This document shows positions 18,295 to 63,080 of a stretch of 63,080 nt of DNA, piece by piece. The notes below the pieces were generated by a model that was not told where the DNA came from, made no database searches, and worked only from the letters and a program-made list of their open reading frames with translations. Position numbers and translations under genes: made by a program. The stretch comes from Candidatus Microgenomates bacterium (lineage in GTDB: Bacteria; Patescibacteriota; Microgenomatia; JACPZF01): contig JACQHK010000053.1 of assembly GCA_016199065.1 (NCBI GenBank), forward strand, positions 1-63,080. The letters are read 5' to 3'. Position 1 is the stretch's first letter; each line of letters opens with the position of its first letter.

Positions 18295-18341
18295 GAAAAT
18301 GAAAATGTATAATGTACAATTATTTCCTTTTATTTTTTACA

Positions 18342-18432
18342 TTATATACTCATCTTACTCCGGTTTGCAGCTCGTCAGAGCGAAAAAGCGGATTAGATGC
18401 TTGCCTGCGCAAGCAGGAGTATATACTGAGAA
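18342..18432 (-). promoter_or_regulatory. Conserved structured element, copy A (5' of cysS)
   Basis: Shares the blocks TCAGTATA, CATCTAATCC and CGGAGTAAGATG with 30914..31020. Two hairpins sit at the same positions in both copies but with different sequences. Confidence 0.45.
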
Positions 18433-18453
18433 ACTCAGGTTACAAACCTGAGT
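18431..18453 (-). terminator. Hairpin terminator after the CofE-like gene
   Basis: AACTCAGG-TTTGTAA-CCTGAGTT followed by TCTC on the minus strand. Confidence 0.5.
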
Positions 18454-18469
18454 TATCGAAGTATTGATA

Positions 18470-20628: not shown

Positions 20629-21159
20629 CTAATGACCAACTTGCAATGCCTTCAAAGTTTTATTTAGGGCTTCTTCCTTTGAATTGGCGTAAGTATCAAT
20701 TACCAAATCGTATTTTGCCGGATTCCAAAAATCATTGCCGTATAACCGTGTCCATTTTTCTAAATTTTCTTTTTCCCTGGTTTCTAATAATTCCTTAGCT
20801 TCTTCCACCGGCAGGTTTTCTCTATTTACCAATCGATCAATTCTTAAGGCCTCATTACAAACCAAAAGAATTTTAAAAACGTCTGGTAAATCTCTGGCCA
20901 AATATCCCGTTAACCAACCTTCGATAATTTTATTTCGTTGATTTTTGAGCATGTCATAAACCATGGCATCCAAACCGCGTTCGTATTGATCGGGTCGTTG
21001 GGAGGCAAATTCCAGGGGAATTTTATTTTTTTTACTATACTCTCTTTGCAATTCTCCCGTTGAGTGACGCTCCCAACCAAGTTTTTCGGCCAAAAGCTTT
21101 GAAAGCGTGGTTGTTCCTGTGCAAATTAAACCTGAAACGGTGATGTTTTTATACTTCAT
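20629..21159 (-). CDS. P-loop nucleoside monophosphate kinase (cytidylate kinase-like)
   Basis: N-terminal P-loop-like ITVSGLICTGTTTLSKLLAEKLGW and a size of 176 aa. Confidence 0.6.
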   Translation of the reverse strand: MKYKNITVSGLICTGTTTLSKLLAEKLGWERHSTGELQREYSKKNKIPLEFASQRPDQYERGLDAMVYDMLKNQRNKIIEGWLTGYLARDLPDVFKILLVCNEALRIDRLVNRENLPVEEAKELLETREKENLEKWTRLYGNDFWNPAKYDLVIDTYANSKEEALNKTLKALQVGH

Positions 21160-21163
21160 GTAG

Positions 21164-21275
21164 AATTTTCAATTTTCGTAATTTACGAATTTTCAAAATA
21201 ATTTTCAATGCTCAATTTTCGAAACTGAAAATTGAAGATTGGTTTGAAAATTATGAAAATTGGAAAATTGGAAAA
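21164..21275. repeat. AATTTTC/GAAAATT heptamer palindromic intergenic repeat, copy R1
   Basis: The left half carries about six AATTTTC-like units and the right half about five GAAAATT-like units, centred on AATTTTCGAAACTGAAAATT. Confidence 0.8.
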
Positions 21276-22757
21276 CTATCCTTTGGTATTCATTACTATC
21301 GTCTTATATCTCGTTAACTCTCCAATTAAGTATTTTGCTCCCTGTACCATACCTAAACCTGAGTTTTTAAAACCGGTAAAGGGGAAGTGATCTGGTCCCC
21401 GAGCATCTTTGCCGTTAATCTGAATTGACCCCACTTCTAAGGCATTAGCCACTGCCCAGGCGGAATCTAAACTCTTTGTAAAAACGCTTGACTGTAAACC
21501 ATATTCTGATTGATTTGCCAAACCAACTGCTTCCTGCCAATCTTTTACTTTCATAACTGGCAAAATTGGCCCGAAAGGTTCCTCCCAGGCAAGTCTCATT
21601 TTTTTAGTTACGTCAGAAACAATCGTTGCCTCCATAAATCTCCCCTCTCTTTTTCCACCAAGGGCAAGAGTAGCTCCCAGATTTAAGGCATCATCAAGAA
21701 GCTCTTCAACATATTGAGCAGCTTTATCATCAATAATTGGTCCGAGTGTATATTCTTTAATTCGGGGATCTCCTAAAACAAATTTTTTATGTATCACGGA
21801 GGATAATTTTTTCAAAAATTCACTGTAAATCTTTTCTTCCACCATCACACGTTTAATACCGGTACACCTTTGTCCACCATAAGAAAATGATCCCTTGGCA
21901 ATCTCTTCTGCGGCCAAATCCTGATCGCAATCTGCCAAAACAATAGAGGCGTCTTTGCCTGATAGACCAAAAAGTAATTTTTTCATTCCGGCTTTTTTAG
22001 CTACTATTTCGGCAGTCTCATATGAACCAGTTAAGTTAATGGCATCAACTTGTTTGTGAGTCACTAAGAAATCGCCAACATCCTCACCCTTACCGGTTAC
22101 ACAATTTAAAACACCCGCAGGTATTCCGGCCTGGCGAAAAAGTTCAATCATGTGTAGGGACGAAATTGCACCTTGGGTAGAAGGTTTTAAAACAACCGTA
22201 TTGCCGGAAACCAAGGCTCCTACAATTTTAGGCGCACCTTCATTAACTGGGTAGTTAAAGGGGGGAATGGCTAACACTACGCCCAAAGGAACACGCCGGG
22301 CGATGGCAATTTTATTTCTTTTGGTACCGGGGTAAGCCGAGGAATCCCAAACATCACCTACTAACCTTCTTCCTTCTTCTGCGTAATAATCAATTAAATC
22401 AGCCGTGCGCAACGCTTCTTCTTCTGCTTCGGAAAATGGTTTGCCGATTTCTAAAATAATTAAATCACGCAGATAATCAGCATTTTCTTTAATCAAAGAG
22501 GCTGCCTTGTGCAACAAATCAACTCTTTGATAGATCGGTAAATTTTCCCAAGGTTTTTGCGCGTTGCGTGAAGATTCAACGGCCATTTCTGCCTCTTCTT
22601 TAGTTACTGAAGGCACCACCCCAACAATGGAATTGTCAATTGGGGAATGAATTTCTAAATAGTGATCGGTTTTGGATATTTGCCAAGCGCCATCTACGAA
22701 AAATTTATAAACTGGAGGGTTCTGGTTATTATGCAATTCATTAAAATTAGTCATCAT
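21276..22757 (-). CDS. Aldehyde dehydrogenase, GapN-like (non-phosphorylating GAPDH candidate)
   Basis: ALDH motifs EEPFGPILPV and FSYGGQRCTGIKRV in 493 aa. Confidence 0.75.
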   Translation of the reverse strand: MMTNFNELHNNQNPPVYKFFVDGAWQISKTDHYLEIHSPIDNSIVGVVPSVTKEEAEMAVESSRNAQKPWENLPIYQRVDLLHKAASLIKENADYLRDLIILEIGKPFSEAEEEALRTADLIDYYAEEGRRLVGDVWDSSAYPGTKRNKIAIARRVPLGVVLAIPPFNYPVNEGAPKIVGALVSGNTVVLKPSTQGAISSLHMIELFRQAGIPAGVLNCVTGKGEDVGDFLVTHKQVDAINLTGSYETAEIVAKKAGMKKLLFGLSGKDASIVLADCDQDLAAEEIAKGSFSYGGQRCTGIKRVMVEEKIYSEFLKKLSSVIHKKFVLGDPRIKEYTLGPIIDDKAAQYVEELLDDALNLGATLALGGKREGRFMEATIVSDVTKKMRLAWEEPFGPILPVMKVKDWQEAVGLANQSEYGLQSSVFTKSLDSAWAVANALEVGSIQINGKDARGPDHFPFTGFKNSGLGMVQGAKYLIGELTRYKTIVMNTKG

Positions 22758-28418: not shown

Positions 28419-28505
28419 GAATTTAAAATTTACAATGTACAATTGACAATTAATAATTAGTTGTTTATTAACAATTGGAAATTCGAAAATTGAAAACTGA
28501 AAATT
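28419..28505. repeat. AT-only intergenic repeat, copy R2 (the right arm is GAAAATT-type)
   Basis: GGAAATTCGAAAATTGAAAACTGAAAATT abuts the stop of the upstream PBP gene. The left side is built of CAATT/AATTT units. Confidence 0.6.
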
Positions 28506-32853: not shown

Positions 32854-32878
32854 TATGATAGCATAAAAGTTAACTATC

Positions 32879-32992
32879 GATTTTCGAATTTTCGTAATTT
32901 TCAAAATAAATCTCAATTTATAATTATCAGGGTTTAAAAATTGAATCTTGAAAATTATTTGGAAAATAGCAAAATTAGGAAAATTGAAAATT
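32879..32992. repeat. AATTTTC/GAAAATT heptamer palindromic intergenic repeat, copy R3
   Basis: GATTTTCGAATTTTCGTAATTTTC on the left and GAAAATTATTTGGAAAATAGCAAAATTAGGAAAATTGAAAATT on the right. Confidence 0.8.
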
Positions 32993-33000
32993 AAGCAAGT

Positions 33001-49914: not shown

Positions 49915-50673
49915 TTAAGAAACAATTTTCAACCTGACCAAAAGCGGTCTCAATCCTCCTAATCCCGTCACAAAATATTGCTGCACCACAGAAAATACTG
50001 TAGTAACAACCCAATAAAGAGCCAGCCCTGAAGGAAGAGAAAAGCCAAAAAAAACTGTCATGGCGGGCATTAAAAAAAGCATTTGTTTTTGCATCGATTC
50101 CTGCATATCTTCTTCTTTGGCTTTTTTCTCGGTTGTTACTTTTTCCTCCGGCCCCTTAAGAAGAACGTTTTTACTTGCAGCTGAGGGCATCATCATTAAA
50201 GAAAGTATTAGTTGGGTAGCACCGGCCAAAAGAGGCAGGATAAAAGTTCTATCCGGCTTTGACAAATCGATCCCTAAAAATACCTTGTTAATCGTTAACC
50301 CGTTAACTTGACCGTTATTTAAAAAATTAATAAAAACCTGATAGAGGGCAATTAAGACTAAAAATTGAACTAAATAGGGTAGACAGCCCGCCAGCGGATT
50401 AAAACCATGCTCCTTGTAAAGTCGTAGCTGTTCCTGTTGTAATCTTTGTTTGTCATTGCCGTGTTTTTCTTTCAACGCATCAAGGTGCGGTTTTAACTCC
50501 ATCATTTTTTTAGCGCTTTTAAGCGCGGGAATGGTGATCGGTACCAAAACGGCGCGTATAATAATGGTGAGTGCTATTACTGCCAATCCGAAGTTGTGAA
50601 ATAAAATGTTATAAAGCCAAATTAAGGCTGTTAATAGGGGTTGGTAGAGTATGGCATTCCAGAGATCACCCAT
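49915..50673 (-). CDS. yidC: Membrane protein insertase YidC (short type)
   Basis: GLAVIALTIIIRAVLVP, NPLAGCLP and ALYWVVTTVFSVVQQ. Confidence 0.9.
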   Translation of the reverse strand: MGDLWNAILYQPLLTALIWLYNILFHNFGLAVIALTIIIRAVLVPITIPALKSAKKMMELKPHLDALKEKHGNDKQRLQQEQLRLYKEHGFNPLAGCLPYLVQFLVLIALYQVFINFLNNGQVNGLTINKVFLGIDLSKPDRTFILPLLAGATQLILSLMMMPSAASKNVLLKGPEEKVTTEKKAKEEDMQESMQKQMLFLMPAMTVFFGFSLPSGLALYWVVTTVFSVVQQYFVTGLGGLRPLLVRLKIVS

Positions 50674-50676
50674 AAC

Positions 50677-50745
50677 AATTTATTTTTCAATTTACTTAAT
50701 TTTCCTAATTTTCGAAAATTTGAAATTTGTGAAAATTTGAAAATT
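50677..50745. repeat. AATTTTC/GAAAATT heptamer palindromic intergenic repeat, copy R4
   Basis: CAATTTACTTAATTTTCCTAATTTTCGAAAATTTGAAATTTGTGAAAATTTGAAAATT, centred on AATTTTCGAAAATT. Confidence 0.8.
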
Positions 50746-50980
50746 ATCTTACCGGATCGTAACCACCCTTACTTAGGGGGTGACACCGTAAAATACGACC
50801 CAAACTTTTAATAGTGCCGCGTAGTATACCATATTTTTCTATAGCCTCATAAGCATACTCTGAGCAAGTGGGAAGAAAGCGACAGCTGGCGTCGGTTAAA
50901 AACAACGATCGGGTAAGGACATTATTAAATCTTAAATATTTCTGGTAAAAACGAATGGTAGAGAGAATAATTGTTTTCAT
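50744..50980 (-). CDS. yidD: Membrane protein insertion efficiency factor YidD
   Basis: IRFYQKYL and [19 protein letters not shown]. Confidence 0.9.
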
Positions 50981-60743: not shown

Positions 60744-62897
60744 TTAAACTCCCAGTTCCTTTTCTCCCCACAATATATCGTCTCCTGGCTTAATCCTGCC
60801 CTGCAGGATTTGTTGGGCGAGCTCGTCTTCTATTTTTTGCTGCACAAGCCTTTTTAGGGGTCTTGCACCGTATTCGGGAGAGTAGGCGGTTTGGGCAAGT
60901 TTTCCTAGAGCTTCTGGTGTTAAGGAAAACTTAATATTTTGTTCTGATAATCTTTCCTGAACCTTTTTTAATTGGATTTGGGCAATTTTTACGATTGCCT
61001 CTTTAGTTAAAGAACTCATCAGAATAATTTCATCAATTCTGTTTAAAAATTCGGGACGGAAATAAGAACCAAGCGCATTCATAATCTGGTCTCTTTTTTT
61101 CTTTTCATCTTTTTCGTTGGGGTCAACATATTCGCCGATTTGAATATTGGAAGTCATTATAATAATGGTATTTTTAAAATCAACCGTGTGCCCTTGTGCG
61201 TCAGTAAGTCGACCGTCTTCTAAAACTTGTAAAAAAACATCAAACACCTTAGGGTGTCCCTTTTCTATTTCGTCAAGTAAAATTAAAGAATAAGGTCTAA
61301 GCCTGATGGGATTAGTCAACTGCCCTCCTTCTTCGTATCCTACGTATCCTGGAGGGGCCCCCAAGAGCCGATCGGCAGTATGAGACTCGGTGAATTCACT
61401 CATATCCAGTCTTACCATCGCACCCTCACTGCCATATACCAATTTAGCTAATACTTTTGCCAGTTCTGTTTTTCCCACACCGGTTGGTCCGAGAAGCAAA
61501 AACGAACCAAGAGGTCGTTTGGGATCTTTTAAGCCTGCCCGCGAACGGCGAATTACATCAGCGACTTCTTCTACTGCCCGATCTTGACCAACGACAAACT
61601 CTTTGATTCTCTCTTCCAGCCCGAGTAGATTTTTCGCTTCTTCTGCGGAGAGGTCGGTTAAAGGGATACCTGTCCGTTGGGAGATAATTTTTTGAATATC
61701 TTCTCTTAGCACTTTATCCTTGTTTTTAATTTTTACTTCAGAGGAAGCTTCGTCCAGAAGATCAATAGCTTTATCGGGAAGATAACGGTCGGTAATATAT
61801 CTCTGAGAAAGTGTAACGGCCGATTTAACGGCCTCAGCGTCGATAGCGACTTGATAATGATTCCCCAATTTTTTAGCAACTGCAGAAAGAATCTTAATCG
61901 CACTTTCGGTGTCGGGTTCGGCAACATAGATTGGTTCGAAGCGACGAGAAAGCGCCGGATCTCTTTCTACATATTGACGATACTCTGTCGGTGTGGTAGC
62001 GCCGATGGTATGTATCTCCCCTCGGGCAAGTGCGGGTTTTAAAATATTAGCCGCAGACATCGAACCGGCCATACCCCCGGCGCCAATTAGCATATGCATT
62101 TCATCTACAAACAAAATCACATTTCCCGCCTTTTTAATTTCGTCAAGTAGAGCAGTAAATCTTTTTTCCAACTCTCCTTGGTATTCAGTTCCAGCCAAGA
62201 CCGAAGTGAGATTTAAAGAAAGCACTTTGACATCTTTTAAAACCGGAGGTACTTGCCCGTTAATTATTTTTTGTGCCAATCCTTCTACAATCGCCGTTTT
62301 TCCTACTCCCGCCTCTCCGATTAATACGGCATTACTTTTAGTTCTTCTGGCCAATACCCTGATCGTTTGTTCGATTTCTATCTCTCTACCGACAACCTCA
62401 TCAAGTTGTCCGTAGCGTGCTCGTTTCGTCAGGTCCAGACAAAACTGGTCAAGGGTGGGTGTTTTTTCCAGTGAAAGGTTTCCGCCCGCCATTTGCGTTA
62501 CTACTTTTCGTGCCTTATCTATATCAAAAAAAGAAGGAAAAATAACAGAACAAGCCAAAAAGAGATCGTAAAGGCTAACTTCTGCTCGATTAAAAAGAAA
62601 ACTTTCACTATATGCAGAAAAAATTATTTTTTTTAATTCTACGGAAAACACCACCCTGTCTTGATGAGCCTGATGATTAATATCTGTAGAATCCTTTAGT
62701 CCTACAAAAAGCTTTTCTTCTAAACTTAGCTGTTCCAGGACCTCTTTAACTTCCTTGCTTTTTAAAAGAATTTTTAGGAGGTGGTAGGGCGTTGCCTGTG
62801 TAGAATTTTGTTGCGCCGCCAATAAAAGAGTTTCGGCCAAAACCCGCTTAGTATCGTCGTTGTATAAAGAAGTGATATCCAGAGAGTTGGTTGACAT
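60744..62897 (-). CDS. Two-ring Clp/Hsp100 AAA+ ATPase (compact ClpB/ClpC-like form)
   Basis: Walker A GEAGVGKT (D1) and GPTGVGKT (D2), Walker B ILFVDEMH and LILLDEIEK, and sensor GARPLKR. It is only 717 aa. Confidence 0.9.
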   Translation of the reverse strand: MSTNSLDITSLYNDDTKRVLAETLLLAAQQNSTQATPYHLLKILLKSKEVKEVLEQLSLEEKLFVGLKDSTDINHQAHQDRVVFSVELKKIIFSAYSESFLFNRAEVSLYDLFLACSVIFPSFFDIDKARKVVTQMAGGNLSLEKTPTLDQFCLDLTKRARYGQLDEVVGREIEIEQTIRVLARRTKSNAVLIGEAGVGKTAIVEGLAQKIINGQVPPVLKDVKVLSLNLTSVLAGTEYQGELEKRFTALLDEIKKAGNVILFVDEMHMLIGAGGMAGSMSAANILKPALARGEIHTIGATTPTEYRQYVERDPALSRRFEPIYVAEPDTESAIKILSAVAKKLGNHYQVAIDAEAVKSAVTLSQRYITDRYLPDKAIDLLDEASSEVKIKNKDKVLREDIQKIISQRTGIPLTDLSAEEAKNLLGLEERIKEFVVGQDRAVEEVADVIRRSRAGLKDPKRPLGSFLLLGPTGVGKTELAKVLAKLVYGSEGAMVRLDMSEFTESHTADRLLGAPPGYVGYEEGGQLTNPIRLRPYSLILLDEIEKGHPKVFDVFLQVLEDGRLTDAQGHTVDFKNTIIIMTSNIQIGEYVDPNEKDEKKKRDQIMNALGSYFRPEFLNRIDEIILMSSLTKEAIVKIAQIQLKKVQERLSEQNIKFSLTPEALGKLAQTAYSPEYGARPLKRLVQQKIEDELAQQILQGRIKPGDDILWGEKELGV

Positions 62898-62904
62898 ATA
62901 AGTT

Positions 62905-63034
62905 AATTTTCCAATTTACTAGTTTTCCTAATTTTCCAATAAAGTTTCAATTTTACAATTATCAAATTTTGGAAACTGAAATTTGAACATTGATATTTGT
63001 TTAGAAAATTCGAAAATTATGAAAATTGTAAATT
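62905..63034. repeat. AATTTTC/GAAAATT heptamer palindromic intergenic repeat, copy R5
   Basis: The left arm is AATTTTCCAATTTACTAGTTTTCCTAATTTTCC and the right arm is GAAAATTCGAAAATTATGAAAATTGTAAATT. The left arm is nearly identical to that of R4. Confidence 0.8.
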
Positions 63035-63080
63035 ATAAGTTGCCAATTATTCCCCACAAAACAACGATTAGAATTAGTCC

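Follow-up and report, generated by a model that had tools for sequence, protein, structure and literature searches.

Intergenic AATTTTC/GAAAATT palindromes in a Microgenomates genome: a probable REP/MITE-like family of hairpin repeats

Repetitive extragenic palindromic (REP) sequences, about 20-40 nt long and G+C-rich, flank the gene for their REP-associated tyrosine transposase (RAYT). The Correia elements of Neisseria (CREE or NEMIS) are gene-less, 100-155 bp long and bounded by terminal inverted repeats; they lie in many copies by gene starts and ends, are co-transcribed, have been reported to carry outward promoters and RNase III sites, and have ends formed by an invariant 26-bp inverted repeat, together with a TA duplication and a site for integration host factor (IHF). 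Rickettsia palindromic elements (RPE) are often inserted in frame inside genes. Here we describe a family of palindromic repeats built from the heptamers AATTTTC and GAAAATT, of which five copies lie in a 63,080-nt contig of a Candidatus Microgenomates bacterium (JACQHK010000053.1, hereafter the window, meaning this whole stretch of DNA) and many more elsewhere in the genome of the same organism. Our reading, held with moderate confidence, is that the family is a non-autonomous selfish hairpin repeat comparable to REP sequences or to MITEs (miniature inverted-repeat transposable elements), a passenger of ~115 nt present in about 47 non-coding copies.

Several published repeats bear comparison with this family. 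REP sequences, bacterial interspersed mosaic elements (BIMEs) and REP doublets forming hairpins (REPINs) are found together with RAYT genes in enterobacteria and Pseudomonas (PMC3116915), and Coxiella's intervening sequence (IVS) has a 28-bp stem with GACAGAT repeats (PMC4990558). In Xanthomonas, arrays of the heptamer GGGAATC form inverted pairs, 70-75 per genome (Rehm et al. 2015, PMC4692102), which favor spacers that separate aligned open reading frames (ORFs), lie <50 bp from start or stop codons and are transcribed (PMC4692102). These pairs are the closest published look-alike in architecture, in that both consist of two convergent arrays of one heptamer in one spacer. The Xanthomonas units, however, are G-rich, are read as quadruplex formers, follow each other in perfect tandem and surround no conserved center (PMC4692102), whereas here the units are A/T-rich and separated by conserved spacers of 0-2 nt, and the whole 115-nt element has a consensus. 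Direct repeats of the heptamer TAACTGA precede start codons in Beggiatoaceae and cyanobacteria (PMC4679880); like them, the arrays described here end a few nucleotides before the starts of genes without a Shine-Dalgarno site, but the TAACTGA repeats are direct, keep one orientation to the gene and form neither a palindrome nor an insertion-like element structure. A full-text search of the literature found no description of such repeats in bacteria of the Candidate Phyla Radiation (CPR), and Rfam 15 gave no match in the window at gathering score.

Census, anatomy and common descent of the family

The repeat was followed through the whole host assembly (Microgenomates/CPR; 892,751 bp in 62 contigs, 38.9% G+C), here labeled G000, in which the window is contig C47. 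The assembly is fragmented but 95% complete by marker genes, and its genes and start codons are our own rough ORF calls (91% coding). A relaxed-filter search of G000 with a profile built from a MAFFT alignment of 33 full copies genome-wide identified 47 loci at E<=0.1, with a total length of 5,081 nt, corresponding to 0.57% of the genome and ~6% of its 83.9 kb of intergenic DNA. Since 8 of the 124 contig ends fall in arms of the element, the family evidently helps to fragment the assembly and the 47 loci are a lower bound.

Counts of exact units gave a similarly clear picture. Across G000, three or more exact units stand together within 60 nt in 50 clusters, and in 36 of them AATTTTC units are followed by GAAAATT units, with the opposite order in one and single arms, several at contig ends, in 12. 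Forty-three of the clusters are intergenic, compared with means of 0.16, 0.28 and 2.7 in Markov simulations of order 1, 3 and 5, respectively, trained on the same intergenic DNA. In addition, a triple-unit pattern matched G000 34 times, while the same pattern reversed, as a backwards control, did not match at all. Based on these two comparisons the pattern is real and lies far beyond chance. A first-pass annotation of the window, made from its sequence, had described five heptamer-built palindromic stretches, all of which are present; its "at least five copies" has grown to about 47, and the shuffled-sequence type of control that it proposed, run here as the Markov simulations, went in its favor. 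Its description of the elements as "AT-only" has to be amended, given that every unit holds a G or a C and some copies hold a nested GC-rich hairpin. The heptamers do not follow each other at a strict 7 nt, since start-to-start distances of 7, 8 and 9 nt occur about equally often (32, 36 and 39 cases).

The consensus of the 33 full copies, over about 130 alignment columns, is AAATTAATTTTCAATTTTCGTAATTTTCCAATTTTCAAAATAATTTTCAATTTTCAATTTTCAAATTTGAAAATTGAATATTGAAAATTATTTTGAAAATTTGAAAATTGTGAAAATTGAAAATTAATTC. It consists of a left arm of 3-5 AATTTTC units, a center of ~30 nt and a right arm of 3-5 GAAAATT units. Individual copies are 64-178 nt long, with a median near 115, and ~85% A+T. The palindrome reaches three bases past the outer units (ATT, AATTTTC...GAAAATT, AAT), such that the whole element is an imperfect palindrome with terminal inverted repeats, its ends being ATTAATTTTC...GAAAATTAAT. 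As the flank consensus ATT/AAT is itself palindromic, a duplication of TA or TTAA would be indistinguishable from these inverted ends. Letters between the units are also shared among copies, for example -GT-, -C(T/A)- and -CAAAG-/-AAAAT-, as is the sequence of the center, for example ...AAATCTCAATTTA....

Shared spacer letters and a shared center show the copies to be homologous, by descent from a common ancestor, which upholds the earlier claim that these are homologous elements and not generic AT-richness. Pairwise identity between copies reaches 92% (aligned), with a median of 87% over aligned parts and of 68% over the longer copy. Further support comes from a subfamily of four copies, C5:4160, C10:5113, C19:4 and C39:13314, in which a 22-nt GC-rich hairpin, (G/A)CCCGCCTGCC-N4-5-GGCAGG, stands between two units of one arm. 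Its insertion point is identical in all four copies, the order being GGAAAATT, then (G/A)CCCGCCTGCC..GGCAGG, then NAAAATT; two of the copies lie in each orientation of the element, and C5:4160 is 92% identical to the reverse complement of C10:5113. A GC hairpin at a fixed point in both orientations shows that the composite was copied whole and went into new sites in either direction, which is the signature of a copy-and-paste element and not of arrays grown in place.

Hairpins of the type CCTGCC-N3-7-GGCAGG also constitute a second small repeat family in G000, with 16 GC-rich members of CCTGCCTGCGCAGGCAGG and CCCGCCTGCCGGCTGGGCAGG types. Examples are C35:3978, C55:273, C56:915, C52:158 and C26:14126, and some members lie inside rough ORF calls. 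Those nested at the fixed point of the AT-rich element are at C5:4263, C10:5137, C19:74 and C39:13337.

Empty sites in relatives and placement relative to genes

The comparison with related genomes that the first-pass annotation had suggested was carried out at two levels. Triple-unit matches were absent from three same-family genomes, and a profile search of the whole of the closest relative, G002, whose flanking genes share 60-87% amino-acid identity with those of G000, gave nothing even at E<=1. Twenty of the G000 copies have both neighbor genes adjacent in G002, and many of these orthologous spacers are empty. Thus, the 120-nt spacer at C9:3332 corresponds in G002 to a stop/start overlap, TAATG; the spacers at C27:15186 (83 nt), C39:13312 (190 nt), C59:1206 (122 nt) and C3:540 (163 nt) correspond to about 0-13 nt; and the 116-nt spacer of the first window copy (C47:21163) corresponds to 32 nt. 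At C10:15251 the downstream gene keeps a Shine-Dalgarno-like AAGGAG, with the element upstream of it. Given that orthologous spacers are empty in relatives, the elements are insertions. The empty G002 sites are too diverged to place the insertion junction. Positional homology of the copies with longer spacers in the relative was considered and rejected, as the orthologous G002 spacers are >=75 nt in 32% of cases versus 29% genome-wide.

A search of metagenome contigs with MreB returned about 20 loci at which the junction between mreB and a glycosyltransferase gene is syntenic. Ten of these, among them the closest, L268 (86% identity; TAAttcttATG), have a spacer of -4 to 20 nt. Others hold unrelated palindromes of 73-124 nt, and so do the genomes G003 and G004, with TTTAAAT-type and TCAAAT-type arms. 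The small spacer is thus ancestral, and hairpin elements of many unrelated sequences have entered the mreB spacer repeatedly in the class. On the upstream side of mreB, where G003 and L268 have no element, an extended -10 box of G003, TGATATAAT, is separated from the ATG by 6 nt (TGATATAAT-N6-ATG), and L268 has TGTTATAAT-N26-ATG. In G000 TGATATAAT is kept and is followed by a 116-nt element and then by aatagtATG, from which we conclude that in this conserved gene the insertion separated the -10 box from the start codon. A corresponding contig search for close relatives based on ClpB gave matches of only <=48% identity, and exact look-ups with the proteins of two flanking genes returned nothing.

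The relatives carry heptamer or hairpin families of their own, AATTTCT/AGAAATT, AAGTCAAAA, ATAAGCAAATGA and TTTTGAG being those seen in G002 (L134, L177, L184 and L153) and G001 (L092). Among the nearest relatives there is also a 133-nt palindrome in the same spacer where G000 has the C10:5113 copy, and a run of four ACTTTTG inside a gene.

All copies in G000 are intergenic, and no ORF runs into an element. Some copies lie inside operon junctions and one, that of mreB, between a promoter -10 box and an ATG. Among 29 copies with classifiable context, 24 lie between co-oriented, 3 between convergent and 2 between divergent genes, compared with 74%, 14% and 12% of G000 spacers overall. These proportions reveal no preference for promoter-bearing gaps, and placement looks like a random choice among spacers. 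The fit to the gene boundaries is nevertheless tight. Where an arm faces a gene end, the stop codon TAA shares bases with the terminal TTAA in 14 of 39 cases and is otherwise 0-11 nt away; where it faces a gene start, 4-8 nt (mode 7) separate the outermost unit from the ATG in about 19 of 29 cases, and of the bases in between only the first two or three (AAT) are conserved. The tabulation of position and orientation that had been proposed for the family therefore yielded strictly intergenic copies set tightly at gene boundaries, but no bias of context.

At C61:2085-2830, infC apparently starts at a codon other than ATG, GTG or TTG, as is usual for this gene. A small AATTTTC...GAAAATT element with a GC hairpin at its center stands before infC, and a lone half-arm of three GAAAATT units stands after it, 15 nt before the ATG of rpmI.

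The five window copies and the wider heptamer background

The first copy of the window, at 21164..21277, is full length (114 nt; profile E 1e-22 at 21163-21277, in the training set), with five exact AATTTTC in the left arm (21164-21220) and four exact GAAAATT plus one GAAAACT in the right arm (21227-21277). It fills the spacer from the stop codon of an aldehyde-dehydrogenase gene (21276) to the start of a cytidylate-kinase-like gene (CAT 21157-21159, 4 nt from the first unit) and, as RNA, is predicted to fold at -33.2 kcal/mol (z -6.0) with 47 pairs across the center. The second copy, at 28419..28505, is a degenerate relative with a marginal profile score (E 0.02, 28424-28505); its left arm reads AATTTAA/AATTTAC/AATGTAC/AATTGAC and its right arm GGAAATT/CGAAAATT/GAAAACT/GAAAATT, and it lies between two minus-strand genes for class-A penicillin-binding proteins, by Pfam matches of the neighbors. 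The left arm of this copy is also made up of TGTACAA/CATTGTA (cattgtacattgtacattgtac), a minor heptamer family that ranks second among the locally repeated 7-mers of G000 (window 28430-28450, C53:586-630). The third copy, at 32873..32996, is full length (about 120 nt; profile E 3e-21, in the training set) and occupies a divergent gap, where 8 nt separate the end of its last GAAAATT (32992) from the ATG (33001) of a gene assigned by Pfam to the AI-2E transporter family; its predicted fold is -26.6 kcal/mol (z -5.0).

The fourth copy, at 50677..50747, is short (64-70 nt) and has no center, its arms meeting at AATTTTCGAAAATT. The profile recognizes its right half (E 3e-4), it begins 4-8 nt after the yidC start (CAT 50671-50673), and its predicted fold is -10.2 kcal/mol (z -2.2). 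Its right end adjoins a different repeat family (atcttaccggatcg...). A different palindromic family, tatactcatcttac(c)ccggtt... / ...gataactcaggtttgtaacctgagtt..., seen at window 50746-50800 and 18340-18460, C33:9486 onward and C39:19974 onward, directly adjoins AATTTTC elements in at least three places. The fifth copy, at 62902..63035, is full length (134 nt) and was recognized with E 2e-19 although it was outside the training set; its first unit lies 7 nt after the start of a ClpB-like gene (CAT 62895-62897). As had been pointed out before, the fourth and fifth copies have a string in common, CAATTTACT-N2-(A/G)TTTTCCTAATTTTC, which starts 14 nt from the CAT of yidC in the fourth copy and 14 nt from that of clp in the fifth.

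Outside G000, the family was found in two metagenome contigs, L197 and L269, whose MreB proteins are only 70-74% identical, and G006/L081, from another family, gave a weak match. In L197 it occupies both mreB junctions, at offsets from the -10 box and the ATG that differ from those in G000. The copies that G000 and L197 have at these shared junctions are not each other's nearest relatives, which argues for independent insertion or for homogenization within each genome.

In a sample of 401 genomes of the class, a triple AATTTTC array as such is present in 70, compared with about a dozen for the backwards control, and G000 has by far the most, with 34. The arrays of the other genomes are mostly single perfect (AATTTTC)3-5 runs. 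Of 19 that were examined, 13 fall within long open frames, and in every one of these the sense strand carries AATTTTC, because TGA stops arise in every frame of the complementary strand. These in-frame runs (L304, L305, L308-L310, L312-L316, L318, L319 and L321) are in conserved genes, among them miaA-like, transketolase-like, methyltransferase and glycosyltransferase genes, and L089 and L090 have an (AATTTTC) run at the same point of an RluD-like gene. In 1.4 Mb of DNA from the class that had not been picked for AATTTTC, 38 different heptamers form perfect arrays and AATTTTC is not among them; accordingly, we rejected the idea that AATTTTC is a special word throughout the class and regard it as one unit of many in a class where heptamer repeats abound.

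Competing readings and comparison with known systems

As a non-autonomous hairpin repeat, the family would have spread by copy-and-paste into short AT-rich spacers, with an enzyme active on hairpin DNA as its probable mobilizer in trans; a RAYT-like gene is the only candidate seen. Copies would be tolerated where no reading frame is broken, and would be transcribed together with their neighbors, folding into AU-rich hairpins of about -19 kcal/mol. Any effects on expression, by way of outward TTGAAA/(G/T)AAAAT boxes or of an A/U-rich leader without a Shine-Dalgarno site, would be a by-product and not the reason for the existence of the element. The family is probably no longer very active and in decay, because no two copies are near-identical.

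The search for a parent or mobilizing enzyme covered several candidates. A gene-bearing master copy was sought among arms separated by up to 3 kb and was rejected, as no gene stood between separated arms; the one candidate, C61 2085...2820, proved to be a small element and an independent half-arm that lie on either side of infC. DDE_Tnp_1, rve, DDE_3 and TnpB had no match in the 95% complete G000. Two cassettes were considered as parents and set aside, that of PF13366 (PDDEXK_3, "GxxExxY"), which had no match in G000, and that of PF05635 (four-helix bundle, 23S rRNA IVS protein), for which the single G000 hit was below threshold (25.4 vs 33.8 bits), lay in an operon and had no arms. PF05635 genes are nevertheless widespread in the class, occurring in 261 of 401 genomes and often at 5-11 per genome; G000 scores 0 in this survey, and its relatives G001, G003 and G002 have 8, 3 and 1, respectively. 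Of 29 PF05635 genes that were examined (L322-L351), most are bracketed at start and stop codons by inverted heptamer-like arrays as judged by eye, while a strict script flagged only 3 of the 29 loci as bracketed. The arms of these cassettes vary from locus to locus, whereas the 47 hairpins of G000 share one sequence and have no gene.

The sole transposase-like gene found in G000 is a RAYT-like Y1/HUH fragment, a C-terminal piece of 137 residues on the minus strand of C5:11118-11528, outside the window and cut by the contig end. It holds an HUH motif (HFH) and RYIHLNP, with the Tyr present, and matches the NCBIfam REP-associated tyrosine transposase (NF047646) with E 2.8e-11, while its Pfam Y1_Tnp score of 19.6-21.5 bits falls just short of the cut-off of 23. 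No AATTTTC units are present on its 3' side. The hairpin that follows the fragment, GTGTT-N7-AACAC, was tried as its repeat and rejected, as it occurs at 5 loci versus 4 in the control and so is not repeated. Of the 401 genomes of the class, 228 have RAYT homologues, many of them more than one, and the hairpins that flank these genes give them a REPtron-like layout.

Several observations weigh against the family being a passenger mobilized in this manner. No mobilizing enzyme has been tied to it, and the RAYT link is unproven: about 25 RAYT loci that were read have short GC-rich hairpins of the classical REP type, and not heptamer arms, on either side, and G002 has two RAYT copies but no AATTTTC family. 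Movement was not seen either, in that there is no near-identical pair among the copies compared (maximum 92%). The distance of 4-8 nt to the ATG could instead reflect selection for function. Finally, the filling of the same two mreB junctions in the distant L197 needs either recurrent insertion or an old presence followed by loss.

The main rival is that the arms supply outward -10 boxes for leaderless mRNAs, so that the copies would be portable outward promoters. TTGAAA would serve as a -35-like and (G/T)AAAAT or AAAATT as a -10-like element, and the outermost GAAAATT, sometimes after TG, would act as the -10 box for an mRNA without a leader, its first bases being those of the ATG 6-7 nt further on; a gene severed by an insertion from its own promoter or from translational coupling would stay expressed. 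If these were portable expression cassettes of that kind, in a bacterium without Shine-Dalgarno sites, the repeat could land in operon junctions and promoter-gene gaps without silencing them and would rewire transcription units in a minimal genome. We consider this unlikely, although the characteristic distance of start-facing arms from the ATG matches the TATAAT-N6-ATG at mreB of G003, and promoter-like matches within copies are mostly outward. The Shine-Dalgarno signal in G000 is nearly nil (15% of well-defined starts vs 11% background), and the -10 box of G003 that stands only 6 nt before the mreB ATG suggests that leaderless mRNAs occur in this lineage. TATAAT clusters at -17 to -11 from the ATG, a signal that is in part artefactual, since the genes had been picked for in-frame upstream stops. 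A leaderless signature drawn from A at -11 was partly an artefact of the same choice and was not relied on.

Promoter activity had also been among the roles put forward for the element at the outset. Sigma-70-like matches do exist at 1-3 per region in three copies, mostly outward and of the form TTGAAA-N16-17-TAAATT/GAAAAT/CAAAAT, but they are not in excess of shuffled sequences (1 vs 1.8, 3 vs 2.4 and 3 vs 1.9 in the three regions), and divergent gaps are not enriched nor convergent gaps depleted, such that this role is unproven. Further points against it are that stop-facing arms (39) outnumber start-facing arms (29), that AAAATT agrees with TATAAT at only 3 of 6 positions, that the terminal unit in L197 directly abuts the ATG, and that a short distance to the ATG would also follow from insertion into very short spacers.

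Selection for a signal at the RNA level is improbable in our view. The AU-rich hairpin would then be kept as an RNase III site, an mRNA stabilizer or a bidirectional attenuator, in the manner of REP/BIME sequences, Correia elements and the stems of 23S IVSs. Full copies do all fold as RNA into one long imperfect hairpin, with a median of -19 kcal/mol, z of -2.8 against dinucleotide shuffles and 30-47 pairs across the center; most lie between co-oriented genes, and the heptamer-bearing stem of the Coxiella IVS is cut by RNase III (PMC4990558). The stems are imperfect, however, and are not maintained by compensatory change. Co-variation was looked for and not found, the arms of one copy being slightly less complementary to each other than are arms of different copies (0.231 vs 0.298, normalized), and the arm's own partner having a mean rank of 15.9 of 24. 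The pairing potential thus stems from the shared consensus, with no locus-wise maintenance of the stem. Moreover, the relatives manage the same junctions with spacers of 0-30 nt, there is no match to an Rfam family, and a consensus scan of three copies with their flanks found 0 intrinsic-terminator-like sites (a G+C-rich stem plus a T-run), which speaks against the terminator role in the first-pass annotation.

Slightly less probable again is that the unit arrays are bound by a protein with affinity for DNA or RNA, for example a nucleoid-associated protein, a global regulator or an S1/CsrA-like protein acting on the leader, so that the word and not the hairpin would matter. The units do recur at 7-9 nt and arm complementarity is not specific to a copy, so that the word, rather than the pairing, is what the copies have in common. 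Against such a role, the non-unit spacers and the center are conserved as well and whole composites have been copied, the functions of the neighbor genes are unrelated, and orientation and context look random; in addition, the family was not found in the three same-family genomes despite conserved neighbor genes, so it cannot be a conserved regulon. The nucleoid-protein role put forward in the first-pass annotation likewise agrees poorly with conservation outside the units and with the lack of the family in the nearest relatives. That AT-rich composition and local slippage generated the family with no common origin is refuted, common as period-7 slippage arrays are (15 of 19 perfect tandem arrays in G002), by the excess of clusters over simulation, an arm order of 36:1, the shared spacers and center, the composite subfamily and the backwards control.

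These considerations return us to a selfish hairpin repeat, and the "REP-like" or "MITE remnant" label was the best-fitting of the four roles originally suggested, as orthologous spacers are empty, but the size and composition of REPs and the parent insertion sequence of a classical MITE were not found. Microgenomates genomes are among the smallest and most tightly packed free-standing bacterial genomes, yet about 0.6% of G000 is one selfish-looking repeat, wedged into stop/start overlaps and between the promoter and the start of the essential gene mreB. Streamlined CPR genomes are thus not free of proliferating non-coding DNA, and the family is a practical reason why such assemblies fragment. 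Its copies are natural insertions with which the tolerance of a 115-nt hairpin right before the start could be tested in genes that have no Shine-Dalgarno site and are possibly leaderless. With its 47 copies, consensus, empty sites in relatives and composite subfamily, the family is also a well-defined addition to the heptamer repeats of bacteria, whose excess is poorly understood.

Among known systems, REP/REPIN and Correia elements are the closest in behavior. The family shares with REPs and REPINs short, non-coding, imperfect palindromes in tens of copies, which are strictly extragenic, are set mostly between genes that are co-oriented or convergent, can fold into hairpins and differ from one relative to another, and G000 also holds the RAYT-like Y1/HUH fragment; the family departs from REPs in size and composition, as the elements here are ~115 nt long, 85% A+T and armed with heptamer arrays. 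Correia elements are likewise gene-less, with inverted repeats at their ends and many copies near gene boundaries, whereas here the arms are heptamer arrays and no sequence relation is known. Like RPEs, these are small palindromic repeats spread in a reduced genome, but all G000 copies are intergenic. The PF05635 or 23S rRNA IVS cassettes of Coxiella and Leptospira have hairpin arms with heptamer repeats as well; unlike them, the elements of G000 have no PF05635 gene above threshold, a loop of ~30 nt and no trace of a gene. A classical MITE would have a parent, an insertion sequence that shares its ends and encodes a transposase, and none was found in G000. Since the family differs from REPs in size and composition and has neither the parent insertion sequence of a classical MITE nor the gene of a PF05635 cassette, we have filed the family as a variant of the small palindromic dispersed repeats and as a member of none of these groups.

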